Source of the DNA: an uncultured Candidatus Saccharibacteria bacterium
GTDB taxonomy: Bacteria > Patescibacteriota > UBA1384 > DTJR01
Direction: 5' to 3'
Assembly: GCA_964487045.1 (NCBI GenBank)
Contig: CAZAOT010000003.1
Coordinates: 72,983 to 136,982, forward strand
Length of the DNA stretch: 64,000 nt
The translations under genes were made by a program, and so were the position numbers. The first letter of the stretch is position 1. Each line of letters starts with the position of its first letter. The notes under the pieces are model-generated. The model did not search any database and had not been told where the DNA came from. It saw only the letters and a program-made list of their open reading frames with translations. Positions 20,420-52,026 of this stretch are shown here, piece by piece.

Positions 20420-20476
20420 TGCTTATCGGAGGCTTTGATCCTTCGGTATTTCTTCAAATCGGCAGGAGGGAGCGTC

Positions 20477-20851: not shown

Positions 20852-20918
20852 CTCAAACCAGTTGCGTCTCAAGGCGAGCGCTATGCGTTCGCCTTCATTT
20901 TTAGTAGATGATAAAAAG

Positions 20919-32394: not shown

Positions 32395-32404
32395 TACTTA
32401 AAAA

Positions 32405-32440
32405 AGAGGAAAGCCCCCCGCCATGCGGCAGGGGGCCTTG
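32405..32440 (-). terminator. Terminator for cassette h on the minus strand (GGCCCCCTGCCGCATGGCGGGGGGC followed by TTTCCTCTTTTTT)
   Basis: Read on the reverse complement. Confidence 0.55.
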
Positions 32441-32461
32441 TTTCCCGGTGCGATGAAAGTC

Positions 32462-32908: not shown

Positions 32909-32988
32909 CATTTTGGACACCTCTTTCAAAGGTGCTGGAATTGACTGATTCGGGTAACTATACCACAATTACCCGAGAAAGTCAAGGT

Positions 32989-33348: not shown

Positions 33349-33425
33349 ACCCTTCGCCTCCTTTGCGAAAGATGTGGTTCTAAGATATAATCTAGTCCGA
33401 AATTAAGGAAAAGCAAGAGGTTTAT

Positions 33426-34626: not shown

Positions 34627-35628
34627 ATGCCTCAGCTTAGACAAAATATCATTACTGGTGAATGGGTCGTTTTTGCTCCAGAGCGAGCTAAAAGACCGAC
34701 TGACTATGTTTCTATAAACAAGGAGAGGAAGCAGAAGAAAGAAGATTGCCCGTTTTGTATTGATTCAAAAAATAGTGAATACTCAAAGCAAAAAAAAGAG
34801 TTTGAGACAGATAATACCTATGTAATCACTAATAAATATCCTGTGTTTATTGAACAGCCTGAAGAGAAATCGGCTAAACTTTTCAGACTCGAGGATGAAT
34901 TCTACAAAATGAAAATTGCTCTTGGCGGTCATGATGTTGTGGTAGTTAAGAACCATGACGTTGATCTATGTGATTTTTCCAAGGATACTTTCGCCGATTT
35001 GCTTAGCACCTTTAAACACAGGGCTGAATATTTTAAGAAAAATGAGAACATTGAGTATGTAATGCCGATCTACAACCATGGCCCGGCTGCTGCTGCTTCA
35101 ATAGAGCATCCACACGCTCAAATTGTCGCTTCAGCAGTTGTACCGAACCAAGTTTTAAGGGAAATCCAGTATACTCAAAAGCATTTTGACGAACATAGCA
35201 AATGCGCATTTTGCGAGCTAGTCGCACACGAAATTGAGCAAAATACCCGGGTAGTGGTAGAAAATGAAGATTTCATCGCTTTTAACTTCTATGCTGCACG
35301 ATTCCCATTTGAGACTTGGATTTTACCGAAAAATCATCAGTGTAAATATGAAGACATAACTAAAGAGCAAATATCTTCTCTCGCCTCCTTATGCAAGGAT
35401 TTATTTGGCAAGATGGGTGTGGTACTAAATGATCCAGATCTTAACTTCTTTATTCACTCCGGTCCTCTTAAAGAAGAGAGTTTGAAATCATATCATTGGC
35501 ATATTGAGATTACTCCTCGACTTTCGACTTATGGTGGGTATGAGCTTGGCTCGGGAATGGTTATCGACATCATAACTCCAGAGCAATCAGCCGAGTTTTT
35601 ACGTCAGGGTAAGATAGAGAAAAACTGA
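34627..35628 (+). CDS. galT: Galactose-1-phosphate uridylyltransferase family (GalT, HIT-like)
   Basis: GEWVVFAPERAKRP, CPFC, HPHAQIV motifs. Confidence 0.65.
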   Translation: MPQLRQNIITGEWVVFAPERAKRPTDYVSINKERKQKKEDCPFCIDSKNSEYSKQKKEFETDNTYVITNKYPVFIEQPEEKSAKLFRLEDEFYKMKIALGGHDVVVVKNHDVDLCDFSKDTFADLLSTFKHRAEYFKKNENIEYVMPIYNHGPAAAASIEHPHAQIVASAVVPNQVLREIQYTQKHFDEHSKCAFCELVAHEIEQNTRVVVENEDFIAFNFYAARFPFETWILPKNHQCKYEDITKEQISSLASLCKDLFGKMGVVLNDPDLNFFIHSGPLKEESLKSYHWHIEITPRLSTYGGYELGSGMVIDIITPEQSAEFLRQGKIEKN

Positions 35629-35730
35629 ACTATTAAAACCTTGAATTTTTATTCTAGTTAGGGTATATTAACAATCAATCAGGTTAAAGTATCAATTAAG
35701 AGACCTTCAGGTTGATTGTTGGGGTGTAAA

Positions 35731-36993
35731 ATGAAAGTGATGATTCTTCTTAAATTTCCTCTATATGGAGGCGGAAGCGGAACGTACACTAGGAAGCTCG
35801 CTGAGCTTCTGGCTAAAGAGAAGGGGTATCAAGTTGCGGTTGTTTCTCCTGATACTAGAACTATAAAAGGTTGCAAGCACTATCAGATTAAACCTGCTTT
35901 CAAAGCGGTATTCGAGGCTCACCCCGAGATGAAGCGAGCCAAAAAATATTCTCGGCTTTCTGGCAGTGAATTTTCGAGACAATATTCGGCCTACTTACGT
36001 GACATTACTAATGCGGTTGCTGATTTTAAACCAGATGTTATTCATGTTAATCACGCTTCATTTTTAACATGGATAGCTTCATTTATTCGCTCAATGTTTG
36101 GAATAGCGTTTGTAACCACTATACATGGGACTGGTGTGTATAATGCAACTATCGATCAAAGATATAGGCTCTTAACAAAACAAGCTCTTGAGAGATCTGA
36201 AAGCTTGATTGCTGTTTCTCCTCATACCAAAAAATGGTTCTTAAAAGTTTTTGGTAAGAGCTTGATCAAAAAAACAAGAATAGTTCCAAATAGTATTGTT
36301 TTGGATGAGTATATTAAGAAACCATCAGTCGTTAAAATTGAGAAAGAATATAATCTAAAGGGTAAAAAAGTGGTTCTCTTTGCGGGAAGGTTGACCTGGG
36401 AAAAAGGTGTCGAATACTTAATTCGAGCAGCAAAGACAATTAAAGGAAATGTTTATATAGTTGGTGGTGGACCCCATGAGAAAGCCCTGAAGAATCTAGT
36501 AAAGCTAACTGGTGTTAAGAACGTTCATTTTCTTGGGTATATCGGCAAAGACAAGTCAGATGTTTTAAAAGCTCTCTTCTATCGTGCCAATGTTTTAGTA
36601 TTACCTTCAGTGGTAGATGAATCTACTGGTTTGGTTTTGCTTGAGGCAATGGCTTGTAAAACACCCGTAGTTGCATCGGACAAAGGTGGAATTCCTATAG
36701 TTATCAAAAATGGACATAATGGTTTTTTGGTCAGAGCTAGAAGCTCAAAGGCAATATCTCAAGCCGTGAATAATATCCTAACCGATGACATACTGGAGCA
36801 GCGGTTAGGTGAAAATGCTCGCATCACTATCGAAAACAAATTTAGATGGAAGGTTATCTTGCCTCAATTTACTGCGATATACGAAAAAGCTGCTGATGTT
36901 ACACACAAACTACAGAATCAGAAATATAGAGCACTATTCGATAAAGAAGATATTATAAGAGAAAAGGAAGAATTGCAGAAGAAAATTGTTTAG
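35731..36993 (+). CDS. Glycosyltransferase family 4
   Basis: EAMACKTPVVASDKGGIPIVI..GFL C-terminal GT4 signature. Confidence 0.7.
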   Translation: MKVMILLKFPLYGGGSGTYTRKLAELLAKEKGYQVAVVSPDTRTIKGCKHYQIKPAFKAVFEAHPEMKRAKKYSRLSGSEFSRQYSAYLRDITNAVADFKPDVIHVNHASFLTWIASFIRSMFGIAFVTTIHGTGVYNATIDQRYRLLTKQALERSESLIAVSPHTKKWFLKVFGKSLIKKTRIVPNSIVLDEYIKKPSVVKIEKEYNLKGKKVVLFAGRLTWEKGVEYLIRAAKTIKGNVYIVGGGPHEKALKNLVKLTGVKNVHFLGYIGKDKSDVLKALFYRANVLVLPSVVDESTGLVLLEAMACKTPVVASDKGGIPIVIKNGHNGFLVRARSSKAISQAVNNILTDDILEQRLGENARITIENKFRWKVILPQFTAIYEKAADVTHKLQNQKYRALFDKEDIIREKEELQKKIV

Positions 36994-37006
36994 GATATAG
37001 TTTTGA

Positions 37007-37681
37007 TTGATGAATAAATCACTCAAGCTTAATGGTATCGAAGATATTAATCTACTGGCGGTTTTGGGGCATTCGAATAAGTCGGCAAAAATTGACGATC
37101 CGATGACTTTTGATGCGAGAGTAAGGTGCCGCGCGGCTGGAGTTTTGTATAAAGAAAAGAAGGTTAAGCAAATTGCACTCCTTGGCGGGGGTAACGATAA
37201 GGTTATGAAAGTGGCCGAAGGAGAAAGAATGCGCAATTATCTTAAGGATTCTTTCGACATTCCCGATGATTTGATGACAACCGAAAGTGAAGGCGTTAAC
37301 ACCATTACGGATATTGTTTCAATCCTTTTGAATATAAAAAAAGAGAAGATCGATCCAGAAAAAGTTGTATTTGTAACCTCTGACTACAATTCAGTTAGGG
37401 TCAAAATGGTGCTCGAAATATTAGGCGCTGCTAAGATGGCCGTATTTTCCTCTGAGAGAATATTGCTCGAGTCAGGAGATTATTATTCTCATCAAGCCGG
37501 GGAATATATGGAAAGTAAAGAATATCAAAAACGTCTTTTATATGAATCATACTGGATTGCCAAGACTGTCTTTGATGCAAAATACACCGAACAGGCCAGG
37601 GAAATTCTTGAAATTAAAAAAAATCCGTTAGAACTATACAAAGATTTGCCACGACGAGAGATGGATAACATTGATACTTAG
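37007..37681 (+). CDS. DUF218 (YdcF/ElyC-like) domain protein
   Basis: LLGGGNDKV and FVTSDYNSVRVKMVLE-type motifs. Confidence 0.4.
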   Translation: MMNKSLKLNGIEDINLLAVLGHSNKSAKIDDPMTFDARVRCRAAGVLYKEKKVKQIALLGGGNDKVMKVAEGERMRNYLKDSFDIPDDLMTTESEGVNTITDIVSILLNIKKEKIDPEKVVFVTSDYNSVRVKMVLEILGAAKMAVFSSERILLESGDYYSHQAGEYMESKEYQKRLLYESYWIAKTVFDAKYTEQAREILEIKKNPLELYKDLPRREMDNIDT

Positions 37682-37689
37682 GAGGAATC

Positions 37690-39642
37690 TTGAACAAAGA
37701 ATATGAGGGTATTTCTCCTGAAATTGAAGAAGATGAAAGACGGGAGAGCCAAGCAGATGCACTCATTGTGTTTGGATTTGGAATTAAAGATCCAAACTGG
37801 ATGCAGAAACGCAAAGAAGCTGAAGAAGCCGGTGTTGATCCTGAAACAATTTCAGATCAGTCGGAGGGTTGGATGCTTTCTCTGGGCGCAAAAATGCGAG
37901 TGCAAGCAGCGGCAGAATTATATTTAAAGGGTGCGACTCGAGAAGTTATTTTTACAGGTGGAGCTACTAGAACTAAAGATGGTTTGCAGCAAACGGAAGC
38001 CCAGGTTATGGAAGATTATTTTCTGCATATCCTTCGAAAGCGAAAATTTGAACAATTAAAGGGCGATAGAGTGCAGCTTTCCGAAACGGAAAGACGTGAT
38101 ATTGATGTTGTCTCTACTGCTTATATTCAGGAAGCTAAAACCCATATTATTAAAGAGGATAAAGCCAGCAATACAATCGAAAATTTTTCCAGAACACTTG
38201 CGATGTTTGATAATAATCCTAATAAATATAAAAAAATCGCACTTCTTTCCAGTAAATTTCATATTGACCGGATTGGACAGCTTTCAGAACAATTTTTATT
38301 ACCTGCTGATGAAGAGTATGGTGCCGAAGAGGTAATGGCAGAATCGAGAAAAGGAAAGAGGCATGAAGCTTTATATACTGATGTGTTAAATGATTATCTC
38401 GAATCCGAGGAATATTATAATTTTACTCTGCGAGAGAACCAATGGAGGGGAGGTTTGAGGAAGGTACCTGAATATTTTCTTCCTCAAACTATTTTTGTAG
38501 ATATAGATCGATTTCGAGAAATACTTAGAAGCATGGCATTGCAGGATGAAGTATATGCAAATAAACTTTCTGAGCTTGGTATAAATCCGGATTCTCTAGA
38601 TGATCTTAGCGAAGAGCAGTTAAATGATATCAAGAATAAGATAGAGTCTATTGAAAGAATCCTACCTCCGCAGAGTTGGGCCGAAGTTAATCCCGAGCAA
38701 ATATTTGCTACACCGCCAGCTAGGTTTGAAAAGAGATCCGAGTATACTGATCCTCTTGAAAGAGCAAGGCATTTAGAAACATTGATTTTTAGTGATGTAG
38801 ATGGCACTTTGCGCGGCGAGGGAGCAAATGATCGCCTGGTAGGTGAATACATTAGGCTCGCCGAACGTTGTTCGGGTGAAATAATTTTAACTTCTAGTCG
38901 CTCGAGAGGAGATCTGGAGACGCTTAAGGATCTATACAGGATGAATGAACTTGCCCCGGTTATTTTTGAAAATGGCGCCGGTGTAGCTTTCGATAATAGG
39001 CTAGTTGATATTGGCATGCTAAAACAAATTGCATCTGAAGAGGGTTTTTCTCATGTTAATTTTGTATCAAGCGCAAATACGACAATAGTGGAATTTTCAC
39101 CGAGTCGGCAGAGTTTGAGGCCTGTTTTTGACGAAGTCGCTAAGGAGACGGGGTTGAAATATCATTATGTATTGGATTTACCTGCTCAGGATATAGCTGA
39201 GCTATATAATATCAGTCTCGAGCAAGCTGAGGATATTAAACAGCAAGTTCCTCGCGAGGAAAAATTATTCATGGAAAATATCGTTTTCGAGGAGTCTGCT
39301 TCGGAAGATGAGATCCAGGAATTTGCGCTAAAAGCAAAAGATAGAGGTCTTCACCTAACCAGGGCAAGGATAACTTGGCATTTGATGAGTTCTAATGTCA
39401 ATAAAGGCGAGGCAGTTAGATTTGTACAAAAGGTTTATAAGCATTTGAGTCAAAATTATCGCTTATCGGTAGCGGTTGGAGATGCTCCTAATGATTTTGA
39501 AATGTTTAAACAATGTGATGAGGCGTATTATGTCGGTGATGATAAGTACGTGGTAGAGGGGAGCCATGAGACAGAAAAGAAGAGGTCTGAAGGTGTAATA
39601 GAGTTAATTAGAAATAAATTTCTTAATATGAGGGAACAATGA
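37690..39642 (+). CDS. Fusion protein: N-terminal DUF218-like domain plus C-terminal HAD-IIB-type phosphatase domain
   Basis: ALIVFGFG..IFTGGATR; HAD motif I IFSDVDGTL and C-terminal GDAPND. Confidence 0.45.
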   Translation: MNKEYEGISPEIEEDERRESQADALIVFGFGIKDPNWMQKRKEAEEAGVDPETISDQSEGWMLSLGAKMRVQAAAELYLKGATREVIFTGGATRTKDGLQQTEAQVMEDYFLHILRKRKFEQLKGDRVQLSETERRDIDVVSTAYIQEAKTHIIKEDKASNTIENFSRTLAMFDNNPNKYKKIALLSSKFHIDRIGQLSEQFLLPADEEYGAEEVMAESRKGKRHEALYTDVLNDYLESEEYYNFTLRENQWRGGLRKVPEYFLPQTIFVDIDRFREILRSMALQDEVYANKLSELGINPDSLDDLSEEQLNDIKNKIESIERILPPQSWAEVNPEQIFATPPARFEKRSEYTDPLERARHLETLIFSDVDGTLRGEGANDRLVGEYIRLAERCSGEIILTSSRSRGDLETLKDLYRMNELAPVIFENGAGVAFDNRLVDIGMLKQIASEEGFSHVNFVSSANTTIVEFSPSRQSLRPVFDEVAKETGLKYHYVLDLPAQDIAELYNISLEQAEDIKQQVPREEKLFMENIVFEESASEDEIQEFALKAKDRGLHLTRARITWHLMSSNVNKGEAVRFVQKVYKHLSQNYRLSVAVGDAPNDFEMFKQCDEAYYVGDDKYVVEGSHETEKKRSEGVIELIRNKFLNMREQ

Positions 39643-40727
39643 AGATATTGATGGTAGCACCACTTCGTCGACCAATTGACCCAGATATAACTGCCTCGAG
39701 GCCGAGAGTTATATTGGATTTAATTGAGGGTCTGATAAAAGAGGGTCATGAGGTTTCAGTTCTTGGAACAGGCGACTCCGAAATTCCAAATGCTAAGTTG
39801 ATTCCATTAATTGATAAAGCGATTAATTTTATGCCCGCTTTTGAAAATCCTTTTTATGCAGAAACAGGCTTTTTGGTCAGATGTGCAAAAAAACTTGAGG
39901 AATTATCTGGTGAGTTCGATATTATCCACAATCATCAATTTCCGGAATTTATTAATTTATTAATTGAAGACAAATTAAAATGTCCAATGATAACAACGGT
40001 ACATGCTCAGATGACTCCGGAGATGGATGAAGCACTTGCCTGTTTTCCGGATTCTAATCTTGTAGCAATATCCGAATCTGCAAGTAGCTTGGCTAAAAAA
40101 GCGAAAATGTTAAAAGTCGTTTATAACGGAGTTGACACCAATCTTTATTCTTTTACTGAAGATAAAGAGGACTATCTACTTTGGATTGGAAGGCTTGCAA
40201 AATCAAAGGATGACAATGGTGAGTTTATTGATCCAAAAGGTGTTAAGTGGGCAATAAAATTGGCTGAGGCGACAGGTAGTCGACTAAAATTAGGCGGAAA
40301 TGTAGAAGATCAAGATTTCTATGATCAGGAAGTTAAGCCTCATCTGAACGATAAAATTGAATGGATCGGACCGATTTCCGCAGAGCAACCGCTATCAAAA
40401 GCTGAAGTAGCAGGCCTGATGCAAAAAGCTAAAGCATTTCTAATGACGATAAATTGGGAAGAGCCATTTGGATTAGTTATGGCAGAGTCGATGAGTTGTG
40501 GAACTCCTATTATTGCATTTAGGCGCGGGTCAGTACCTGAGATTATTGAAGATAGGAAAACGGGATTTATTGTGGAGCCTGAAAAAGGAGTTGATGGTCT
40601 AGTCGAAGCTTATGAAAAGATCAAGCAAATAAATCCAACTGATTGCAGAGATCTAGTGCTTAATAAATTCTCAATTCAAAAAATGGTTGAAAATTACGAG
40701 AAGGCATATATTGAACTTGTAAAATAA
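39639..40727 (+). CDS. Glycosyltransferase family 4
   Basis: EPFGLVMAESMSCGTPIIAFRRGSVPEII. Confidence 0.65.
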   Translation: MKILMVAPLRRPIDPDITASRPRVILDLIEGLIKEGHEVSVLGTGDSEIPNAKLIPLIDKAINFMPAFENPFYAETGFLVRCAKKLEELSGEFDIIHNHQFPEFINLLIEDKLKCPMITTVHAQMTPEMDEALACFPDSNLVAISESASSLAKKAKMLKVVYNGVDTNLYSFTEDKEDYLLWIGRLAKSKDDNGEFIDPKGVKWAIKLAEATGSRLKLGGNVEDQDFYDQEVKPHLNDKIEWIGPISAEQPLSKAEVAGLMQKAKAFLMTINWEEPFGLVMAESMSCGTPIIAFRRGSVPEIIEDRKTGFIVEPEKGVDGLVEAYEKIKQINPTDCRDLVLNKFSIQKMVENYEKAYIELVK

Positions 40728-40736
40728 AGAAAAAAT

Positions 40737-41807
40737 ATGAAAAAACCAAAAATAGTTTATTATACGACACCGTATGGATACGGGCATGTTGTAAGAGCGA
40801 ACGCAATTATACAGGCGATTGGAGGTCGTGCTGACGTACATTTGATAGCGGCGATTGATATTATTTTTGATCTAGCTAAAAATATTCATTTTCATAAAAT
40901 TGATGAAATTCCTGGCTCGGTAAGGTTTGATTGTCCAATATATTATGAAGATAAAGAGGGGAAAACTCCAAGTACAAGTTCGGGAAAGCATATTGAAGAA
41001 TTTCGAACTCATACGCGAAAATTCGTTGATCTTCTTTGTGATATTAATCCCGATCTAGTCATTATTGATGTAACTCCGGAATTTGCGATTTTTGCGAAGA
41101 TATTGGGTTTTGAAAGCGCCCAGGTTTTAATCACCGGCAAAAGAGATGATTTACGAAATAAAGTGTCTTTGTGCAGCGTTGATCATGTGATAGTTCCATA
41201 CCCGGAAAATTTTGTTGATTTGTCTTACTTACCTGCTGAAGCTCGAAAAAATATATTTTATAGTGGCGCTTTCTCTAGGTTTGATGGCAAGCGAATTATT
41301 TCAAAAGATGATGCAAAAAAGAAACTTGGAATTCCAAGTGATAAGAAATTAGTTGTTTGTGCTTTTGGCCGAGGCGATTTAGGGGGCAAGGTAGTCAAAA
41401 AGGTTGAAGAAATCGCAAAATCTAAAGAATTTGCCGACTGCCAGTTTAAAATATTCGGCAATATTCCGAACGTTGATGAATATCTTAATGCAGCTGATTT
41501 TGCGATTTCAGGTGCTGGAGATAATACAGTGATGGAAAATTGTTATTATCGGGTTCCGATGATAATGATTCCGCTTAAAAGGCGTTATGATGAGCAGGTT
41601 CTCAAAGCTGAAGCGCTAGAGAAAATAGGAGCGGGAAAAATTATTTTAGAGGATGAAATAGATAGCAAGTTACAAGATGAATTACGTCGACTGATATCAG
41701 ACGAGGGGTATCGTGAAGAAGCTGCCAAAGCTGAAGGAAAGTTTGTTGACGGCCATGGAGCTGAGAGACTTGCTGATGAAATAATACGGTGGACTAAGCT
41801 TAGCTAA
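40737..41807 (+). CDS. GT28/GT1-type (MurG-like fold) glycosyltransferase
   Basis: C-terminal ADFAISGAGDNTVMEN..P.I.IP motif. Confidence 0.5.
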   Translation: MKKPKIVYYTTPYGYGHVVRANAIIQAIGGRADVHLIAAIDIIFDLAKNIHFHKIDEIPGSVRFDCPIYYEDKEGKTPSTSSGKHIEEFRTHTRKFVDLLCDINPDLVIIDVTPEFAIFAKILGFESAQVLITGKRDDLRNKVSLCSVDHVIVPYPENFVDLSYLPAEARKNIFYSGAFSRFDGKRIISKDDAKKKLGIPSDKKLVVCAFGRGDLGGKVVKKVEEIAKSKEFADCQFKIFGNIPNVDEYLNAADFAISGAGDNTVMENCYYRVPMIMIPLKRRYDEQVLKAEALEKIGAGKIILEDEIDSKLQDELRRLISDEGYREEAAKAEGKFVDGHGAERLADEIIRWTKLS

Positions 41808-41901
41808 TAGTTGACTCTTGATTCAATTTGATGTATAGTAATTGCCTCGGTTAAAGTATATGATATTATCATAAATAGTTATTTTAACCTTCGGAGGAAG
41901 T

Positions 41902-42996
41902 ATGAATTATGCCGTTATAATGGCTGGTGGATCTGGTACAAGACTTTGGCCCATGAGCCGAAAACAGAAGCCTAAACAGCTTCATAATTTAGTTTCTGAT
42001 AAAACCCTTATTCAAGAAACATATAATAGATTGCTTAAGGCGTTACCCGAGGAAAATATCTATGTTTCTACGACTAGTTCATATGTAGATGAGATTAGAA
42101 AGCAGCTTCCTAAAATTCCGCGAGAAAATTTTATTATTGAGCCTTCTTCTCGCAATACTGGACCAGCGCTCGCCTATTTGGCAAAAGTTATTGCGATGAA
42201 GGACCCGGAGGCTATTATTGCCACTATTGCTTCTGATCATATAGTTAAAAATATTGATGTTTTCGCCAATACTGTCAAAACGGCTTTTGAAGCAGCTAAA
42301 AAATTTCCTGATCATTTGATTGCGGTTGGGATTAATCCTACTAAACCAGATACCGGACTGGGTTATATCAAAATGGGCTCGATGAAGGTAGAGATTAACG
42401 ATGAGAAGGTTTTTGAAGTCGATACGTTTGTAGAAAAACCAGATCACAAAACAGCGGAAAAGTATTTACAGAGCTGGGAATATTTATGGAATGGTGCTTA
42501 TTATTTCTTCTCGGCCAAATCGATGCTCGGATGGATAAAGAAGTATCGTCCAGAGATGCTCAAGACAATCGAAGAGATCGGCGAGCTTATAGCGCAGGGT
42601 GCTAATGGTACTACGCAAACTAAGATTAAGTCCCTTTATGAGTCACTCGAAAATGAACAATTCGAGAACGCAATTATCGAGCAGGAAGATTTCACTAAAG
42701 TCTTAGTTATTCCTGCAGATCTTGGCTGGTCCGATATTGGCAACTGGGGAACTCTTCACGATGTATTAACTGAAACATATGGAAGTGAGATGATTTCGAG
42801 GGGTTATCATATAGATGTTGATTCGAAAGGTTGCTTGATTTATGGTGGTGAAAAAATGGTTGCTACCCTTGGACTAGAGAATATTATTGTTATTGATACT
42901 CCTGATGTAATGCTGATTGCAGACAAGAGAAGGGCTCAGGACGTTAAAAAGTTACTAGAAAAACTTAAAGACGAAGGTAAGCACTTATATTTGTAA
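41902..42996 (+). CDS. Mannose-1-phosphate guanylyltransferase-type sugar nucleotidyltransferase
   Basis: AVIMAGGSGTRLWP N-terminus. Confidence 0.65.
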   Translation: MNYAVIMAGGSGTRLWPMSRKQKPKQLHNLVSDKTLIQETYNRLLKALPEENIYVSTTSSYVDEIRKQLPKIPRENFIIEPSSRNTGPALAYLAKVIAMKDPEAIIATIASDHIVKNIDVFANTVKTAFEAAKKFPDHLIAVGINPTKPDTGLGYIKMGSMKVEINDEKVFEVDTFVEKPDHKTAEKYLQSWEYLWNGAYYFFSAKSMLGWIKKYRPEMLKTIEEIGELIAQGANGTTQTKIKSLYESLENEQFENAIIEQEDFTKVLVIPADLGWSDIGNWGTLHDVLTETYGSEMISRGYHIDVDSKGCLIYGGEKMVATLGLENIIVIDTPDVMLIADKRRAQDVKKLLEKLKDEGKHLYL

Positions 42997-42997
42997 G

Positions 42998-43864: not shown

Positions 43865-45756
43865 TGAAAAGCAGTGAAAATCTTATAAATATTGTTAAGA
43901 AACTTGGCCGAAGAGGAGAAGAAGTAATTCCAGTTGGCGAGGATCTTACTGACGTTTTTGGTAGGAGACTGAAATTCGAAGGGCAGGCAATTGATCTTGA
44001 GAAGAACCAGTTGAACAAGGCGGCGCAAGATTTGCTCAAAGAGCTTCAAACTGAGGGCTCGGAGATAGAGAAAGTTCTTAGAGGACAAGTAATGTGGTAT
44101 GACGTTCGGTCTTCGGTTTGGAAAGAGCATCCTGAACTTTCTGCTCTTATGGCACTTGCCTACGCTAAAGTCTTGATTGAAAGAACTGGAAAAACTACTG
44201 GTCATACGCTTAATATCGCGGTTGATTGTTACAAGAAGCATTATGAGTCAATGTCGGTGTTTGCGGATACAATTATTAGAACTGGAATCGTACGAGATGG
44301 TGGTGGCGTGATTTATTGGGGCGTTCAAAATGGAGGGTCTATTAGAAATGTTGCTCAGGCAGAGCGAGCATTTACTGGTGAAAATGGAAACTGGATTTTT
44401 GGAACAATGAGTCATAGAGCCGAGGATTATGTCGGTGCTAAATTTGGAATGCAGGGCAAGGTTTTTTGCGGTCCTGATCTAATGAATGATTTATATGGAA
44501 AAATAATTTCTGGAGACTTTCCTGAATTAATTGAGATAGCATCTCCTGAAGAATATGCTGTTACGGTTGGTGATTTAACTGCAAATAATATTGATATTGT
44601 TGAGGACTTGGTCAGAGCTAGAACTGGTACGAAAAAGCCGAAAGAAGAAATTCTTGCTGGTATGAAGGTTGGTATGAATATGTGCGGTAGCCCAGTTGGC
44701 AAAAACCTACTTGATATTCTCAAGGCGTTTGGAGCGGATGTAGTAGCTATGAATGATGTTTTGAATGAGAATTATTCAACTGCTAATATTGTTGACCCAA
44801 ATGAACATGAATCTGAAGCGATGGAGGATATGAAAGAAAAAGCTAAAGAAAATGGAAGAATCTATCTAGCGCTTGACCCAGACGGAGATAGGGGGACTGT
44901 GATTGCGCTTGATTCAAATGGTAAGCCAGAGTCGTTGACAGGTACTGAGCTACTTCTTCTGGCGACTGAGAATCTTGCTACTTATAATCCAAATAAACTA
45001 CAGGCGGACGTTATCTACGACATGAGAACTGGTATTTCAATCTCTATGCTCCAAGAAGCACTCACTAAAGCTGGATTTCCGATAAAGACTCTCGCGGCCG
45101 AACCTGGATATCCATTCTTTATGGAAATGATGGGAAATAACGAAGGGGCAGTTATAGCTGTTGAGAATACTAGCCATCAATTTCTTACGCCGATGACCAA
45201 TCCAATCTGGGGTGCACCAAAATATTATCCTGGGGTTCAAGGTGGAGACGATGGTGCAATCTTCTTGGTTTATATTCTCTCGCTTTGTCATGAAAAGTGG
45301 GAAGGAAGAAATCCGATTGAACAACTTGAGTTCTTGAGAGAGAAGTATAAAATGCCGAAAACTTTGATCCGGGAGTTCAAACCGACAGTGGATAAAAAAG
45401 ATGCTATGAGAAAATATGATCTTGCTGAGGCGATGTGCAACATTGTAAATGATGAGATCGATGGTAGTAAATATCAGATCGATACTATGAATAGTGGAGT
45501 AAGGTTAACCGATCATAGCAAGCAAGCGATGGTTCTTATCAGATACTCTAACACCGGTCCATCGTTTACCGCTTCAGGAGAAGCGGTGAGCAAGGAGGAT
45601 AGTGATTTCATGTTCTCTTTAGGTGGGGCGATTATGGCCAAAGCTGTCGCAAAAGTAAAAAAAGAAAAAGGTGACTTTGAATTTGACTTTGCTAACTATA
45701 GCGAATTCGGTAATATCGATGAAGCTAAGTACAATAAAATAATTAGCGAGGTATAA
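43864..45756 (+). CDS. Divergent alpha-D-phosphohexomutase-like protein
   Basis: GTMSHR (phosphoserine loop-like), LDPDGDRG metal loop, IRYSNTGPS phosphate-binding-like motif. Confidence 0.45.
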   Translation: MKSSENLINIVKKLGRRGEEVIPVGEDLTDVFGRRLKFEGQAIDLEKNQLNKAAQDLLKELQTEGSEIEKVLRGQVMWYDVRSSVWKEHPELSALMALAYAKVLIERTGKTTGHTLNIAVDCYKKHYESMSVFADTIIRTGIVRDGGGVIYWGVQNGGSIRNVAQAERAFTGENGNWIFGTMSHRAEDYVGAKFGMQGKVFCGPDLMNDLYGKIISGDFPELIEIASPEEYAVTVGDLTANNIDIVEDLVRARTGTKKPKEEILAGMKVGMNMCGSPVGKNLLDILKAFGADVVAMNDVLNENYSTANIVDPNEHESEAMEDMKEKAKENGRIYLALDPDGDRGTVIALDSNGKPESLTGTELLLLATENLATYNPNKLQADVIYDMRTGISISMLQEALTKAGFPIKTLAAEPGYPFFMEMMGNNEGAVIAVENTSHQFLTPMTNPIWGAPKYYPGVQGGDDGAIFLVYILSLCHEKWEGRNPIEQLEFLREKYKMPKTLIREFKPTVDKKDAMRKYDLAEAMCNIVNDEIDGSKYQIDTMNSGVRLTDHSKQAMVLIRYSNTGPSFTASGEAVSKEDSDFMFSLGGAIMAKAVAKVKKEKGDFEFDFANYSEFGNIDEAKYNKIISEV

Positions 45757-45758
45757 CT

Positions 45759-46394
45759 GTGGGTAAGACGAAAGTATTTATAGATCTTGACGATACGTTG
45801 ATTGACACCGCTCAGATCAAGCATGATATTTTTGGCAAAATCGCTCTTATGGGTGTGCCTATGGCAGAAATAGCGTCAAGCTACAGCGAAGCGCGCAAAC
45901 AATTCGGCGCTGACTATCTTAAGCCTTTTGCTGAGTCATTTCAGGAATTTGGGATTGATGGCGAGATTTTGTACAATGGTCTGCAGCAAATGATTCTGCA
46001 ACATATGGATAAATATTTACTAGAAGATCGTCTTGTGTGGCTAGATCGGTTTCAGAGTGATCAATATGAAATGTACTTGCTCACTCACGGTAACCCTGAT
46101 ATTCAGGAGAGAAAGGTTCAGGGCCTTCATTTAGAAAATCTCTTTGAAGATAGAGTGATTTATGTGCAAGACAATAAGGCCGACTACATAAAGAAACTTC
46201 TAGGGCCTGGTGAGAAATTTATTTTGGTTGATGATAAAAAGGAAGTACTGGATGAAATTATCAATGAATACCCAGAACAAGCCGAAGTTTGGGAAGCAAC
46301 CAAAAGCGTAGACGATCAAGGCGAAATTACATACAATGATCCAGAAGGGTATTATAGTCCGCTTGATATTGCCCGAGAAGGAAAAAATTATTAA
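45759..46394 (+). CDS. HAD-superfamily hydrolase
   Basis: VFIDLDDTLIDT motif I. Confidence 0.55.
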   Translation: MGKTKVFIDLDDTLIDTAQIKHDIFGKIALMGVPMAEIASSYSEARKQFGADYLKPFAESFQEFGIDGEILYNGLQQMILQHMDKYLLEDRLVWLDRFQSDQYEMYLLTHGNPDIQERKVQGLHLENLFEDRVIYVQDNKADYIKKLLGPGEKFILVDDKKEVLDEIINEYPEQAEVWEATKSVDDQGEITYNDPEGYYSPLDIAREGKNY

Positions 46395-46406
46395 TAAGGA
46401 GTCTTT

Positions 46407-47330
46407 ATGGCAAAAATTTTAGTTACCGGTGGAGCTGGCTTTATTGGTTCGAACTTTTCCAATCTAATGAGTCAAAAAGGGCATGAAGTTGTTGCTTTTG
46501 ATAACCTTTCTCTTGGAAAAAAGGACAATCTTTCCGAAAAAGTAAAATTTGTTGAAGGTGACGTTAATAAAGAAGAAGATCTGCTTAGTGCTGGAGAAGA
46601 TTTTGATTATATTATTCATTTAGCTGCTTCCTCCTCTGCTCCAATGTTCGCCGAAAATATGTACTGGGCTTATCAGAATAATGTTTCGGGTCATGTCAGG
46701 GTCATGCAATATGCGAAAAAAATTGGTGTTAAGAAAATGTTGTTTGCCTCTACTTCTTCAATTTACGGCAACAATCCGACACCACTTACCGAAGACCAAG
46801 AAGTGATTCCTCCGAACCATTATTCGGTGACAAAGTTTGCTCAAGAAGGTGCTTCCCGTGTTTTTTCTAAAGCGGAGGGCTTAGAGATAATTGCTTTCAG
46901 ATTTATGTCGATTTACGGGTTAAACGAAGGTCACAAAACATATTTCGCTAATCTAGTTTCGCAATTTATTTGGTCAATGGCTAAAGACGAAGAGCCGGTT
47001 CTGTATGGTGATGGTACGCAGGAGAGGGATTTTACTAACGTAAAAGACGTTTGCCAGGGTATTGAAAAGGCGATGGAAACAGAAAAAAAATACGGATTTA
47101 CAATCTTCAATATCGGTACGCACAAGGCGATTAATCTATTGGAATTAGTTGAAATGATCAATAAGGCGCTTGGCAAAAATATTAAGCCGAAACTTATCCC
47201 GAATCCAGTTAAGGAAGGTTATGTGAAAAGCCAACTTGCCAGTATTGATAAGATATCAAGTGAACTTGGGTATGAACCGACGGTAGAACTCGAGGACGGA
47301 ATTAAAGAAATTGTTGATAACCTAAAGTAA
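46407..47330 (+). CDS. NAD-dependent nucleotide-sugar epimerase/dehydratase (GalE-like)
   Basis: ILVTGGAGFIGSN; YxxxK region. Confidence 0.7.
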   Translation: MAKILVTGGAGFIGSNFSNLMSQKGHEVVAFDNLSLGKKDNLSEKVKFVEGDVNKEEDLLSAGEDFDYIIHLAASSSAPMFAENMYWAYQNNVSGHVRVMQYAKKIGVKKMLFASTSSIYGNNPTPLTEDQEVIPPNHYSVTKFAQEGASRVFSKAEGLEIIAFRFMSIYGLNEGHKTYFANLVSQFIWSMAKDEEPVLYGDGTQERDFTNVKDVCQGIEKAMETEKKYGFTIFNIGTHKAINLLELVEMINKALGKNIKPKLIPNPVKEGYVKSQLASIDKISSELGYEPTVELEDGIKEIVDNLK

Positions 47331-47387
47331 ACTTGTTTCGCACTAATAATTAGGTTAGAATTTAACTGAACAATAACAGGAGGGTTT

Positions 47388-48710
47388 TTGCGTAAAGGCA
47401 AAACAAGAGTTCTCTTTCTAGCTTTGGTTGGGGTTGTTGTTTTAGTAAGTCTTTTTGCAATTTTTAGGAAGCAGATCTTTGCTGACACCATCACGATGCC
47501 AAGCTGGATTGATAGCGCCACGGTAACTAAATATAATACCTGGACTGCAGGCCAGAAACTTTCTTTTGACAGATGTGCGTCGAATGGTGTTAATACTAAA
47601 TCCACCCTTACTCCTCAGGAGATCAATCAGTTCGGTTCGAGTTCGGTAGCTTTTAATATTAGACCAATCGTAAATGTATCTTCGAGTAGTCCTTACTGGC
47701 CATGGTATCAGAGTAGCTATAGGTTAATTGTCACACCTCTAAAATACGATCTTCAAGCCGATGGATCACGAACTCTGAAAATGAGGCTAACGCTTGGTAA
47801 TCCTGGCACTAGTCCTGTGATTGTTGCTAATCCAGAAGCTCGCTATTATTTCTGGTCTTTTAGCAACTCAGTTCCAAAAGTTGGCAATGTAATATTTACA
47901 AGGGGAGTTGATTATACCTATACATTGTTGCCTGGCGAATATGTGAGTCAAGATACGCTTGAACTCAGCGGAGTAAAGGATCCGGCTTACTGGGGAATCG
48001 AGTTCTCGAATATGAAATATACCTTATCTGGAACGACGCCAAATTTTGAGCAGCCAATTTGGGATCCAGTGGCGCAAAAAACTGATGCTACGCTTAGTTG
48101 TATAATCAATCCTCTTCCCTTAGCAGGGTTGGTTCCAGGCTCAATTCCGTCAGTAACTCCTTCGACAGAAGTTCCTGGTAGTAGAGCGGTTACCTTTAGA
48201 AGAGGATTTTCGACTTTTGGTAATAGTGGAATGACGAACGGCACAATGTTTAAAGACGCTGGATTATTTCTCTATGCTTTTGATGGACCAACTAATTCTT
48301 GGAAAATTTATCCTGGGGGACCGGAGATAAATACTGATTTAAAAAAAGGCTATTACGTTTATAATCCTAGTGCTGAGAAAACTATTAGGTTCGGTTTCGG
48401 TAATCCTACAGTGACTACTTTTGAGCTCACCAAGGGTTGGAATATGCTTTGGACTGCGATGGACAAAAGATTAAGCGATTTAAATTTATTTTATAACGGT
48501 CAGACTTTGTCCGCTCAAGATATGATTAATCTAAGGACGATTAGCAATAACATATTTATCATTCAGGATGATACTGCCACTACGGCTTGTACCTACTTTA
48601 AACTTCTGTCTAATACCGATACTCAAGCGACATGCTCTGGTGGATCTGCAGGACTCGGAAGTTCTAGCAAGATTCCAGGTGGTAAAGCATTCTGGATTTA
48701 TGTCAATTAA
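47388..48710 (+). CDS. Anchored/secreted protein, paralog 1 of a tandem pair, unknown family
   Basis: N-terminal TM; conserved PSWIDSAT..KSTLT N-module and LTKGWNML..C..YFKLL..C..KAFW C-module shared with 48787..50217. Confidence 0.5.
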   Translation: MRKGKTRVLFLALVGVVVLVSLFAIFRKQIFADTITMPSWIDSATVTKYNTWTAGQKLSFDRCASNGVNTKSTLTPQEINQFGSSSVAFNIRPIVNVSSSSPYWPWYQSSYRLIVTPLKYDLQADGSRTLKMRLTLGNPGTSPVIVANPEARYYFWSFSNSVPKVGNVIFTRGVDYTYTLLPGEYVSQDTLELSGVKDPAYWGIEFSNMKYTLSGTTPNFEQPIWDPVAQKTDATLSCIINPLPLAGLVPGSIPSVTPSTEVPGSRAVTFRRGFSTFGNSGMTNGTMFKDAGLFLYAFDGPTNSWKIYPGGPEINTDLKKGYYVYNPSAEKTIRFGFGNPTVTTFELTKGWNMLWTAMDKRLSDLNLFYNGQTLSAQDMINLRTISNNIFIIQDDTATTACTYFKLLSNTDTQATCSGGSAGLGSSSKIPGGKAFWIYVN

Positions 48711-48786
48711 TTTTTTTAAATTGTTTTTGATTGTTAAAAAAGTAAAATTGTAATAGTAGTTTGATTACTTATCATTAGGAGGATGT

Positions 48787-50217
48787 GTGAAGACAAAAAA
48801 TAACCAAAAGCTTAAATTAATAGTATTTTTGGTGCTAGTTATTGGTCTTGCAGCACTTGCAGGTTTCTATATATATAAAAGGACGGTATCTGCTGATACT
48901 ACTCTTCCTTCTTGGATAGATTCGGCTACAGCTACTAAATATAATAGCGTTTGGTCGACTGCTCAGAAACAGCAGTTTCTTGGTTGTATGTCGAATGGTT
49001 ATACTACCAAAAGCACTTTGACTGCCGCCGAACAGTCGCAGTTTGGTGCAAATTCGGTAGTATTTGAGGGTCAGGCAGCTCCTCCAAATGACCCTGCTTA
49101 TCAGATACCATTCTATCAAAGTAAATATCGAATAGTTGTAACTCCCCAAATGTATACAACTAATAATGGATCTACGAGTGCTAAATTTAAATTTAATGTT
49201 TCTAATCCTACTTCAAGCACCTACCCAATGAGAAAGACTTCGATCAGGTTAAGCTTTTGGCATGTCGAGCAATTCGACTATTATGTCGATGGAGTCACTC
49301 CGCATTATTGGGCTGCCGATCAGGTATTATATTTCCCGAATCAGGACAATCAATCATCGCTTGCGCCTGGCCAACAGATGACAATTGAATCAAACGTCTT
49401 AAATATGACTAATGAAAGTTTTTATACCGTTAGCTTTGCTACAGAGATGTATGGTGTTAATACCTCAACCGGGGCAATTACATGGACCGGAGGGGGAACG
49501 GCAAGCTCGGTAAATTGTATAGTAAACCCAATTCCTATTGCATCGCTTAGGACTATGGCTTTTGCCTCTGTCACGCCGACTCAAACTACAACAAGCACCG
49601 CCACTTCCACGGTGACAGCAAGTGCAACTAGGACGGTTGCGCCTCCAACTGTAACGCCAACTCCTTCGGTCACATCAACTACCGCGGGACCGGGAGACTC
49701 TACTTATAATTTTCCTCGTGGTTTTAGTGTATTTGGAGCTACAGCTAATTTCCCATCAAGTCGGTTTGCTGATAATGGGTTATATGTCTACAAGTTTGAT
49801 GGTGTCTCGAACAGCTGGGTATATTGGCCGGGTATGACTCAATTTAATTTAGAAACAGGCAAGGGTTATTATGCCTATGCTGCTTCAGCGAAGTCCGCAA
49901 GCCTTCCTCTAGCCGCTGTTCCTACGGGTACGTATTCGCTGACAAAGGGTTGGAATATGCTTTATAACATTGGGGATAAATCGCTTAGTTCATTGCAGCT
50001 TAGCTATAACGGGGTAACCAAGTCAGCCCAGGAGATGATAAATAGTGGCACGATCCATTCAAGAGTTTTTATTATTGATAACGATCAAGCTACTCAGGCT
50101 TGCAGCTACTTTAAGCTACTTGGGTCAACTAACTCTGTTGCTAATTGTAGCTCAAACACTTTAGCGGTAACGGCTACTTTAAATTCCGCCAAGGCCTTCT
50201 GGGTTTACGTATTCTGA
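48787..50217 (+). CDS. Anchored/secreted protein, paralog 2, with a Thr/Ser/Pro-rich insert (TPTQTTTSTATSTVTASATRTVAPPTVTPTPSVTSTT)
   Basis: As above. Confidence 0.5.
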   Translation: MKTKNNQKLKLIVFLVLVIGLAALAGFYIYKRTVSADTTLPSWIDSATATKYNSVWSTAQKQQFLGCMSNGYTTKSTLTAAEQSQFGANSVVFEGQAAPPNDPAYQIPFYQSKYRIVVTPQMYTTNNGSTSAKFKFNVSNPTSSTYPMRKTSIRLSFWHVEQFDYYVDGVTPHYWAADQVLYFPNQDNQSSLAPGQQMTIESNVLNMTNESFYTVSFATEMYGVNTSTGAITWTGGGTASSVNCIVNPIPIASLRTMAFASVTPTQTTTSTATSTVTASATRTVAPPTVTPTPSVTSTTAGPGDSTYNFPRGFSVFGATANFPSSRFADNGLYVYKFDGVSNSWVYWPGMTQFNLETGKGYYAYAASAKSASLPLAAVPTGTYSLTKGWNMLYNIGDKSLSSLQLSYNGVTKSAQEMINSGTIHSRVFIIDNDQATQACSYFKLLGSTNSVANCSSNTLAVTATLNSAKAFWVYVF

Positions 50218-50259
50218 TCTATAGGTTGATAATTGTCAGTTTTGAGCTAAAATCTTTTC

Positions 50260-52026
50260 GTGGCTAAGAAAAAGAAGAAAACTACAAGGCAGCGCTCACC
50301 CTTATTGACACCAAGGGTTCGGCTATTGGTTATCTATGCGGTAATTGGTGTAATTTTTTTATCTTTAGCTGTCTGGCTAACCTGGCCTCTTAGTAAGTTC
50401 ATTAATTCTGCTATCATCTCCCAACCCGACTTTACTGACGGACCGTTTTTTATTTGGAATCTGTGGTGGGTGAAAAAAGCGATTTTGAATCTATCAAATC
50501 CATTCTTTAGTGATTTTGTATATTTTCCCTCGCGATCTAATCTTGCTCTTCATACCCTTACATTTACTTCAGGGATAATCTATTTGCCACTTAGTCTTTT
50601 TTTCAGGCCTCTTACTTCGTTGAATATAATTCAGCTCTTGTCTTTTATAGCGAGTGGGCTAGGGATTGTTTTATTTTCGAGTTATCTAACTAAACCAAAA
50701 TCAATATTGGAATATTTAAGCCTAGTGCCAGGGGCCATTATTTTCGCTTTCTCCCCTTTCGTTTTTTCTCACCTTCTGGCGGGACACTATAACTTAAGTA
50801 TGATTTGGCCGATTCCATTTGTCGCATATTTCTTGATAAGGACACTAGATGAGAAAAAATATACGCCGGCAATAGGCTTAGGGATATTTGCTTCAGCTCT
50901 CGCCTATCTTGACTTGCAACTGATATTCTTTGCTGGCATTGTATGTCTGCCGATTTTTTTCTCACACATGATTTTTAAGTGGAGAGAATTTTTTACCAAG
51001 CAATCGGTGCTCAGTTTGGCTCTAGCTGTTTTAGTTTTTGCAATTATTTTTGCTCTTCCATATGGATATCTGATGAGCGAATTCTGGGGGACGAAAGATG
51101 CATTTTCTACATATAATAATGGCGATATAAAGATTTTATTTGGTTTTAATCCACTAAATCCACTATTTAAATATCAAAATTACAAACTTCTTCTTTCATT
51201 GATTGGATCATATCGCGAAAACACAATTTCAATCGGTTTTACTGGTCTATTTGTAACTTTAGGAGGGTTTGCGTTGTTTGCGCGGCAACATTGGAAACAG
51301 AAATTTATTTATTTTTTCGTTCTTATCGTTGGAATAGCTTTATCGCTTGGCCCCAACCTTCAATATAACAATCATGTTTATGAGCATATTAGATTGCCCT
51401 ATTATTATCTTCAAAATCTACCATTCTTTAATCTAGGTTTAGTGCCGAGCCGATTTATTTTAATCGCTTATTTTGCTCTAGCTGTGCTTGTGAGTTTGAG
51501 CATGTTCTCTGTCGTAAGATTTTTTCAAAACAAAAAATTGTTTATTCCGGCCATCTGCTTACTTGTGATTGTTCCAATGTTTATTTTAGTCGAAAATTAT
51601 TCTGGCAAAATGATGATTGATCCACTTTATGATATCAAGCAGGTTCAAGAAATTGCACGAGAGGAAGGCGATTTTACTATCTTGCCTTATGAAGCCGGTC
51701 AAAGAGACGCGTATATTCAGGTTCTGCATCAAAAGAAAGTAGTGACGGGATTCTTGGGTAGGAGGATACATGATTATTATATGTCCAAGTATGGTAGCGT
51801 TTATCCAATAAACAAATTTTCTAGAGGACTCGCAGATGAGCTTAATCAATCTGACACTAAGCAATCAGTTGTTTCGGTATTCAGCGAATACAAGATAAGG
51901 TATATAGTTATTGAGAAAAATTTTAAGGATGATCAAGAGCTTGCGAAATTGAGGAGCTATTTAAAAAATATTCAGGCAGATTTGACTTATGAATCTAGCC
52001 AAGTGATGATTTACAAGGTTAATTAA
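50260..52026 (+). CDS. Large polytopic membrane protein with C-terminal soluble domain, possibly GT-C-fold glycosyltransferase-like
   Basis: More than 10 predicted TM helices by eye; no firm motif. Confidence 0.3.
   Translation: MAKKKKKTTRQRSPLLTPRVRLLVIYAVIGVIFLSLAVWLTWPLSKFINSAIISQPDFTDGPFFIWNLWWVKKAILNLSNPFFSDFVYFPSRSNLALHTLTFTSGIIYLPLSLFFRPLTSLNIIQLLSFIASGLGIVLFSSYLTKPKSILEYLSLVPGAIIFAFSPFVFSHLLAGHYNLSMIWPIPFVAYFLIRTLDEKKYTPAIGLGIFASALAYLDLQLIFFAGIVCLPIFFSHMIFKWREFFTKQSVLSLALAVLVFAIIFALPYGYLMSEFWGTKDAFSTYNNGDIKILFGFNPLNPLFKYQNYKLLLSLIGSYRENTISIGFTGLFVTLGGFALFARQHWKQKFIYFFVLIVGIALSLGPNLQYNNHVYEHIRLPYYYLQNLPFFNLGLVPSRFILIAYFALAVLVSLSMFSVVRFFQNKKLFIPAICLLVIVPMFILVENYSGKMMIDPLYDIKQVQEIAREEGDFTILPYEAGQRDAYIQVLHQKKVVTGFLGRRIHDYYMSKYGSVYPINKFSRGLADELNQSDTKQSVVSVFSEYKIRYIVIEKNFKDDQELAKLRSYLKNIQADLTYESSQVMIYKVN

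Follow-up and report, generated by a model that had tools for sequence, protein, structure and literature searches.

The locus described here lies in a 64-kb stretch of a contig from an uncultured Candidatus Saccharibacteria bacterium (the window, 64,000 nucleotides in all) and combines a block of sugar genes, two genes for secreted paralogous proteins (A and B) and a gene for a polytopic membrane protein of the GT-C kind of glycosyltransferases (GTs). It belongs to an unbroken co-directional array on the + strand (33426-55463), which leads from yebC and ruvC through the sugar genes, the paralogs, the GT-C gene and a ROK-family kinase gene to ruvA and recG. The open reading frames (ORFs) that a preliminary description had listed for 34627-52026 are all found where it placed them, on the + strand and with small overlaps or intervals of no more than about 95 bp between them, and its family calls for the sugar genes agree with the Pfam and NCBIfam matches. 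Its inventory passed over one ORF between the ManC and phosphohexomutase genes, with a 288-aa product, and it closed the block at the GT-C gene, which does belong there; the ROK kinase gene directly downstream is a further part of the conserved block.

The 588-aa membrane protein is, on the basis of its modelled structure, solidly assigned as a GT-C fold glycosyltransferase of an uncharacterised family. The fold was modelled confidently, and its polytopic helical core can be superimposed on those of solved GT-C enzymes, so that the original guess of a "GT-C-like" protein is borne out. A transporter, the identity that the preliminary description had regarded as fatal to its proposal, falls away: MFS and VMAT matches appear at Foldseek E >0.01 only, with a TM-score of about 0.12. 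The protein contains at least nine strong hydrophobic segments, a K/R-rich N-terminus (9 K/R in 21 aa), a loop at aa 41-120 that comes after the first transmembrane segment, and a 143-aa C-terminal soluble domain. Because of the K/R-rich N-terminus, the 80-residue loop after the first transmembrane segment and the short, K/R-rich alternate loops, Asp60 and the C-terminal domain are predicted to lie outside the cell, and the N-terminus in the cytoplasm. A conserved acidic residue in the first extracytoplasmic loop together with a cytoplasmic N-terminus is characteristic of the GT-C superfamily; here this residue is Asp60, which lies in the motif DFTDGPFF-WNLWW, is invariant across 49 aligned homologues down to about 20% identity, and represents the candidate catalytic acid.

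Beyond the fold, the protein stands apart from described families. It has no Pfam match at E up to 1, no NCBIfam match and no sequence-level match to any solved GT-C enzyme, a profile search against the PDB returning spurious GPCR matches only. Among the 190 homologues found, 21 close ones come from uncultured bacteria (34-59% identity), and distant ones bear PF19830 (DUF6311), PF09852 (DUF2079) or PF10131. The DUF6311/DUF2079 proteins are the next-nearest relatives (E 1e-37 to 1e-16, 22-28% identity, about 90% of the length) and have Asp60 and other conserved positions in common with the window protein; unlike them, the latter and its 21 close relatives from the Candidate Phyla Radiation (CPR) score below threshold for every Pfam model. 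Of the families suggested in the preliminary description, those of PMT/STT3 type give no hidden Markov model (HMM) match to the window protein; DUF6311 and DUF2079 are confined to the distant homologues. A Pfam scan of the 49 homologues yielded a weak PMT_2 match in six distant ones (best 2e-5), STT3 in one at E 1e-3, a weak YfhO match in one and stray weak AftD matches, and the WWDYG motif (WWD[YWF]G) occurs neither in the window protein nor in any of the 49. Because this motif is missing, the Pfam matches are stray and weak, and no solved structure is matched in sequence, the protein is placed, as far as its sequence goes, outside every characterised GT-C family: it is a new, sequence-orphan family within a well-known kind of enzyme. 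DUF6311 is not mentioned in the searched literature, in which we also found no paper on GT-C enzymes or protein glycosylation in CPR lineages.

The two secreted proteins encoded directly upstream are paralogs, as originally proposed (BLASTP E 3e-74, 36% identity over the full length, far beyond chance); the first part of the N-terminal module (N-module) is 52% identical between them, its second part 23% and the C-terminal domain (CTD) 46%. The Thr-rich tract that had been ascribed to one of them is present in paralog B, but both paralogs bear a Ser/Thr/Pro (S/T/P) linker, that of B being 33 residues longer; S, T and P make up 68% of the 40 aa preceding the CTD of paralog B vs 27% of the remaining protein, and the tract contains no DNA tandem repeat. 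Although both proteins had been described as anchored, secretion via a cleavable signal peptide is likelier: after a K/R-rich start come a hydrophobic stretch and a recurrent "x-A-D-T/S" motif common to four secreted-protein candidates in the window. More broadly, predicted secreted proteins of this lineage carry "x-(F/S/Q)-A-D-(T/S/D/V)" right after the hydrophobic stretch, in the window as well as in relatives, which suggests a lineage-typical signal-peptidase site. One of the proteins with this motif, a 773-aa secreted protein encoded on the opposite strand, has no Pfam match and is unrelated to the paralogs; its kinship with the CTD was considered and rejected (BLASTP E 0.11).

The CTD defines a family of its own. 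In a profile search, 101 of 1.84 billion cluster representatives matched at E <=1e-3; their common part is a domain of about 176 aa at the extreme C-terminus, ending 0-3 aa from the last residue or extended by about 14-40 further aa, in most cases with a Cys as the final one; a repeat homologue search with the CTD profile returned one protein. Throughout a 25-sequence alignment (A5), two Cys, three Trp and a G-W-N triplet show no variation, the three Trp are also invariant in a 62-sequence alignment (A4), and the domain is further marked by an F-W-V-Y-V motif and conserved Tyr residues; both paralogs clearly belong to the family by their HMM scores. Just upstream of the CTD, 54 of 85 family members have an S/T/P window of at least 60%, and the passengers placed before it are diverse, comprising the N-module of the window proteins (single or duplicated), GH123_N, beta-helix, CBM_4_9 and GH141. 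No relative of the CTD was detected in Pfam or the PDB, nor any sequence or fold match to a known carbohydrate- or wall-binding module. We therefore regard it as solidly established that the CTD is a previously undescribed domain family of about 100 clusters. Its general layout recalls CBM2-type cellulase tails and WxL/SLH surface anchors, in which diverse, partly carbohydrate-active passengers are likewise joined through an S/T/P linker to an aromatic-rich, disulfide-bonded C-terminal domain. In one pair of related loci, an 802-aa CTD protein (P0128; L020 1446-3854) corresponds to two adjacent genes (L015 3290-6166), one for a 694-aa passenger and the other for a 263-aa protein consisting of signal peptide, linker and CTD; apparently one gene has been split or two have been fused, and the separate genes of L015 suggest that the CTD can work as a polypeptide of its own.

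To place the block in context, we compared 11 related loci whose GT-C proteins share 34-59% identity with that of the window, one of them labelled Berkelbacteria and one Saccharibacteria; a narrower GT-C alignment scan of the genome collection gave three loci, and a narrower CTD alignment scan of metagenomes gave five. Every sufficiently long related locus has the order ManC, mutase, (epimerase), [slot], GT-C, ROK, ruvA, recG, where the slot is the position directly upstream of the GT-C gene. ManC is found in all related loci that extend that far upstream, and the ROK gene stands directly 3' of the GT-C gene in all sufficiently long ones, with overlapping genes in L006, L008 and L009. The linkage of ManC, GT-C and ROK persists even where GT-C identity has dropped to 34%, while the sugar module is less constant in its GTs: the upstream set of GT-B enzymes and phosphatase differs among relatives, with an S6PP-type (sucrose-6-phosphate phosphatase) enzyme in L005 at the position of the DUF218-HAD fusion, and an additional GH130 and mannose-6-phosphate isomerase in L006.

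The slot itself holds from 0 to 5 secreted-protein genes. The paralog family occupies it in the window (two genes) and in several relatives, with one CTD-family gene in L003/L004/L013, at least one in L007, and three in L014, where they follow GalE and the contig ends. The slot of the ERZ1426829 contig, also counted among those with CTD-family genes, contains four large genes and a 62-aa ORF; the 674-aa and 999-aa products among them equal the CTD proteins P0124 and P0142 in length. In L010 this place is taken by a non-homologous secreted protein of beta-helix/Big_9 type whose long Thr/Pro tract reads "TPTPTPTITATSTNTRTATNTATRTATPTITP", in L008 by an ORF-less GC-rich patch (L008 560-1450), and the slot is empty in L005, L006, L009 and L011. 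A second locus of the CTD family lies downstream of alaS in L015, with no GT gene nearby, and probably also in L020, which has two tandem CTD genes and, by eye, the downstream gene of L015, its contig ending before alaS. Because the slot varies or empties and CTD genes also sit at the alaS locus, the GT-C gene counts as a constant component of the block and the paralogs as movable cargo. Co-occurrence of the paralog family with the GT set, the check that the preliminary description had proposed, is seen in several relatives and not in others. Its "dedicated glycoprotein glycosylation locus" is partly supported insofar as the GT-C gene has secreted neighbours with S/T/P linkers; the word "dedicated" is not supported, since four relatives keep the GT-C and sugar genes without any paralog, and of the findings it had named as refuting, the occurrence of paralogs without GT neighbours is indeed seen (L015, probably L020).

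Table 1. Features of the window and of related loci, with coordinates, strand and principal evidence.
Feature	Coordinates	Strand	Evidence or remark
GalT-like hexose-1-phosphate uridylyltransferase (HIT superfamily)	34627-35628	+	PF01087/PF02744; TIGR00209 128 bits vs cutoff 102
GT4 glycosyltransferase "a" (GT4a)	35716-36993	+	Glycos_transf_1 8.9e-41
Cytoplasmic DUF218 protein	37007-37681	+	PF02698 5.6e-11; no hydrophobic segment seen in sequence
DUF218 + HAD-IIB sugar-phosphate phosphatase fusion (MPGP/S6PP-like)	37690-39642	+	PF02698 + PF08282
GT4 glycosyltransferase "b" (GT4b)	39639-40727	+	Full-length TeGSS match
GT-B glycosyltransferase, GT28 C-terminal / GT1-like	40737-41807	+	PF04101 2.9e-16
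ManC, mannose-1-phosphate guanylyltransferase	41902-42996	+	NTP_transferase + ManC beta-helix; TIGR01479 2.2e-84
288-aa protein without family	42998-43864	+	Between ManC and phosphohexomutase
Divergent alpha-D-phosphohexomutase (PMM/PGM), 630 aa, N-terminal extension	43864-45756	+	PGM_PMM_II 3e-11
Small HAD hydrolase	45759-46394	+	PF00702 28.3 bits vs cutoff 26.4
Extended SDR nucleotide-sugar epimerase/dehydratase, GalE-like	46407-47330	+	PF01370 1.5e-49; under GalE and heptose-epimerase cutoffs
Secreted paralog A, 440 aa	47388-48710	+	Signal peptide (predicted), N-module of ~210 aa, short S/T/P linker, CTD
CTD of paralog A, ~176 aa	48183-48707	+	CTD HMM 1e-82
Secreted paralog B, 476 aa	48787-50217	+	Architecture of paralog A with longer linker; CTD HMM 2.4e-80
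Thr/Ser/Pro-rich linker of paralog B, aa 255-303	49549-49695	+	
CTD of paralog B	49699-50214	+	
GT-C fold membrane glycosyltransferase, DUF6311-related, 588 aa	50260-52026	+	
Codon of Asp60 (candidate catalytic acid, first extracytoplasmic loop of GT-C)	50437-50439	+	
ROK-family sugar kinase without DNA-binding domain	52065-52928	+	PF00480 4.6e-21
Proteins with signal-peptide end motif, window	21621-23942, 29541-30113	-	
Proteins with signal-peptide end motif, window	47388-48710, 48787-50217	+	Paralogs A and B
Proteins with signal-peptide end motif, relatives	L015 714-1409, 3290-5374, 5375-6166; L010 7747-9957		
GC-rich islands	1701-2250, 2401-3800, 7201-8050, 8551-9900, 10301-10850, 15951-17950, 20401-20950, 32251-33350		GC 0.50-0.56 vs ~0.38-0.41 around

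In the sugar module, the enzymes for nucleotide-sugar supply are mostly recognisable, with some divergence. The GalT-like enzyme has an HPHAQ motif at aa 161, and its gene is kept in the relatives whose locus extends that far upstream (L003-L006). The phosphohexomutase has PGM_PMM_II as its sole Pfam domain, yet all four signature loops are kept (TMSH181, DPDGDR338, ENTSH434, RYSNTGP560); L003 and L006 encode a canonical 467-aa phosphomannomutase in its place. The 288-aa protein gave zero matches in Pfam, NCBIfam or the PDB; it contains "LHVHVCG" at aa 125, which resembles a HIT-type His motif, is matched at the corresponding place in L009 and L010 by homologues of greater length (about 420-470 aa), and may be a novel nucleotide-sugar enzyme.

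The three GT-B enzymes and the phosphatase point in another direction. The nearest solved structures of GT4a are T. elongatus sucrose-phosphate synthase (6kih, 8e-28) and BshA (1.8e-26), and GT4a remains under every NCBIfam equivalog cutoff. GT4b matches the glucosylsucrose synthase TeGSS over its full length (7fg9/8x3q, 6e-47) and the BH4 glucosyltransferase at 2e-24; the residues with which TeGSS contacts sucrose, Trp10 and Tyr18 (PMC9909042), are replaced by Arg and Thr, so that the sucrose contacts are not conserved. The GT28-type enzyme scores 71 bits against the murG model TIGR01133 (cutoff 250), its nearest solved relatives being YjiC/OleD-type GT1 enzymes. The HAD-IIB domain of the DUF218 fusion matches the mannosyl-3-phosphoglycerate phosphatase (MPGP) family TIGR01486 at 1.1e-24, with 87 bits vs a cutoff of 164.75, and its best solved relative is PDB 1xvi, a putative enzyme of that kind (8e-9). 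The set therefore resembles the cyanobacterial sucrose/glucosylsucrose pathway (sucrose-phosphate synthase Tll1590, its phosphatase, and TeGSS) in the likeness of GT4a to the synthase and of GT4b to TeGSS and in the adjacent S6PP/MPGP-type HAD-IIB domain, but differs from it in that GT4a is equally close to BshA, the scores fall far under the equivalog cutoffs (sucr_P_syn_N 45 bits vs cutoff 576), and Trp10 and Tyr18 are exchanged; neither the equivalog-level GT4 and HAD matches nor the TeGSS acceptor residues that would mark sucrose or glucosylsucrose synthesis were found. Because the GT-B enzymes are closest to enzymes that use soluble small molecules as acceptors and an MPGP/S6PP-type phosphatase lies beside them, they more probably make a soluble glycoside than a lipid-linked oligosaccharide. 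The same cluster encodes two consecutive cytoplasmic DUF218 proteins (37007-39642, +), the second fused to the HAD-IIB domain; the characterised DUF218 proteins ElyC and SanA of E. coli are envelope membrane proteins tied to undecaprenyl-linked precursor metabolism.

Scans for other elements added little. Promoter and terminator counts in the region were near the shuffled expectation and thus uninformative, and Rfam and tRNA scans of the 64-kb window gave a tRNA-Lys (10075-10149) as their sole match. GC-rich islands are scattered through the window, each with one ORF of odd composition or with overlapping ORFs on both strands; they have no sequence similarity to one another and could possibly reflect horizontal transfer, assembly chimeras or unknown elements.

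Taken together, we propose that a composite block of three parts has been inherited between ruvC and ruvA in a Berkelbacteria-like CPR lineage. In the first part, ROK kinase, phosphohexomutase, ManC, GalT and SDR epimerase would activate hexoses in the cytoplasm, providing GDP-mannose and UDP-hexoses. The second part is the GT-C enzyme, which, by analogy with all characterised GT-C enzymes, would take its sugar from a polyprenyl-phosphate-linked donor and pass it to an extracytoplasmic acceptor. The third part is the variable slot, occupied here by the two paralogs, each presumably composed of a signal peptide, a beta-sandwich passenger, an S/T/P linker and a disulfide-bonded, Trp-rich CTD. 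Secreted proteins in general would have Ser/Thr of their S/T/P linkers O-glycosylated by the GT-C enzyme, probably with mannose, our best guess given that ManC, the mutase and ROK constantly accompany it. The paralogs encoded next to it would be among the substrates without being exclusive or required ones. It is the donor, the acceptor and the functional link among the three parts that we infer, and we give general linker glycosylation, probably mannosylation, a tentative probability of about 40%.

The closest known parallel to this proposal is actinobacterial Pmt (GT39; Rv1002c of M. tuberculosis, with Ppm1 and ManB/ManC). CPR bacteria are expected to have a single-membrane (monoderm-type) envelope, as in that system; the secreted candidate substrates likewise have Thr/Pro linkers, and genes of GDP-mannose supply (ManC, mutase) are linked to the GT-C gene. 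The differences are that the window GT-C has no PMT or PMT_2 match, that its loop-1 motif is DFTDG and not a DE motif, that the window encodes no Ppm1-type GT2, and that the C-terminal soluble domain differs from the one of PMTs. The proposal is favoured by the invariant Asp60 with its predicted outside location, by the constant place of the GT-C gene after ManC, mutase and epimerase and before ROK, by the CTD-family genes in the slot of several loci and by the S/T/P windows of 54 of 85 CTD-family members. In addition, the slot of L010 provides a second, independent Thr/Pro-rich secreted protein beside a GT-C gene. A general rather than a dedicated enzyme also fits the S/T/P tracts in other secreted proteins of the window, namely the product of 29541-30113 and, judged by eye, the C-terminal portion of the 56110-59367 product. 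The latter (+ strand) is a 1085-aa Gly-rich repeat protein, likely beta-helical, with a Ser/Thr-rich stalk and a C-terminal transmembrane anchor, and has a 1091-aa counterpart at the same position in L010 whose start is near-identical by eye; it is a candidate surface protein and a possible glycosylation substrate.

Several observations weigh against linker glycosylation. The window GT-C has neither WWDYG nor a PMT or STT3 Pfam match, and fold comparison does not separate GT-C enzymes with protein acceptors (oligosaccharyltransferase (OST), PMT, DPY19) from those with glycan or lipid acceptors (AftD, AftA, ArnT). The GT-C gene is kept without an adjacent secreted protein in the four relatives with an empty slot. 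Among the ORFs of the 64-kb window, Pfam-scanned or read by eye, there is no phosphoglycosyl transferase, GT2 polyprenyl-phosphate-sugar synthase or flippase, and the window and the 11 related loci contain no GT2 (GtrB/CsbB) and no GtrA, so that a three-component Gtr or CsbB-YfhO system is not indicated. Lastly, gene adjacency is weak evidence of shared function because the co-directional array continues into ruvA/recG with overlapping genes, and the synteny may be inherited rather than functional.

The main alternative, which we consider possible, though somewhat unlikely, is that the GT-C enzyme decorates or elongates an envelope glycolipid or wall glycopolymer (lipomannan- or teichoic-acid-like), as ArnT, AftD, PimE and YfhO do, and that the CTD is a lectin-like anchor binding this polymer, which would explain why CTD genes gather beside glycan genes. 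Among bacterial GT-C families of known function, the majority have glycan or lipid acceptors. The position of the CTD at the extreme C-terminus, its diverse passengers, PT-type linker, invariant Trp and conserved Tyr form a classic binding or anchoring layout, ElyC and SanA offer a DUF218 link to undecaprenyl-linked envelope synthesis in E. coli, and a Bac_transf + WecG cluster lies a few kb off in L005. Set against this, the CTD matches no known carbohydrate- or wall-binding module and is encoded at another locus too, the DUF218 proteins of the window differ from ElyC and SanA in being cytoplasmic, and the window has no lipid-carrier genes. Sequence identity to AftD and ArnT (the mycobacterial arabinofuranosyltransferase and the lipid A Ara4N transferase, respectively) is about 8-11%, there is no arabinan or lipid A pathway context, and the window GT-C is much smaller than AftD and lacks its CBM domains.

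It is unlikely, but deserves attention, that the parts have no functional link at all, the synteny being simply inherited in a compact genome. The sugar genes would then belong to cytoplasmic carbohydrate metabolism centred on a solute or storage oligosaccharide resembling sucrose, glucosylsucrose or mannosylglycerate, the GT-C would be an unrelated housekeeping envelope enzyme, and the slot a permissive insertion site. The co-directional run from yebC-ruvC to ruvA-recG, with overlapping genes of unrelated function, fits such a view, as do the soluble acceptors of the nearest characterised GT-B relatives, the adjoining sugar-phosphate phosphatase, the GH130 and mannose-6-phosphate isomerase of L006, the S6PP of L005, and a slot that is empty in four relatives and filled by an ORF-less patch in L008. 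Outgroup DUF6311 genes (Roseiflexus-like, Vicinamibacteria and one other) also lie in contexts without a conserved partner, neither GT2 nor flippase. However, secreted proteins with Thr/Pro tracts have come to occupy the slot on at least two independent occasions, and ManC, GT-C and ROK remain linked over the whole range of GT-C identity despite variable GTs.

A lineage-specific form of surface-glycoprotein display in CPR bacteria, in which the GT-C enzyme would read the CTD as a targeting tag and O-glycosylate the adjacent linker, with the slot as an exchangeable cassette site (0-5 genes, differing in their passengers) for variable surface proteins that might serve host-cell attachment, appears improbable. 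Least probable of all is the full model of the preliminary description, a dedicated S-layer or adhesin system in which GT4, GT4 and GT28 enzymes build a lipid-linked oligosaccharide that the GT-C moves en bloc onto the two paralogs: its inventory superficially parallels Campylobacter pgl (GT4 enzymes, epimerase, GT-C), and the GT-C shares with STT3/AglB/PglB (GT66) a transmembrane core with a C-terminal extracytoplasmic domain, one homologue even being named STT3 by NCBI, but WWDYG is found in 0/49 homologues, the window GT-C has no STT3 Pfam match, the claim that the locus holds everything needed to assemble an oligosaccharide is not supported, as no priming phosphoglycosyl transferase, GT2 synthase or flippase was found in the window, the GT-B enzymes look like small-molecule GTs, and the paralogs are dispensable for conservation of the cluster and found elsewhere too.

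To our knowledge, almost nothing is known of how surface proteins of CPR (Patescibacteria) bacteria, which are thought to live attached to host cells, are modified or anchored. The locus offers a GT-C enzyme of a sequence-orphan family with Asp60 as catalytic candidate, and a new CTD family, which forms a tag on secreted proteins whose passengers are diverse and in part carbohydrate-active. If the GT-C enzyme does glycosylate these proteins, it would constitute the first protein-glycosylation system described for the CPR; if it instead builds a surface glycopolymer bound by the CTD, the locus would represent a new surface-anchoring mechanism.

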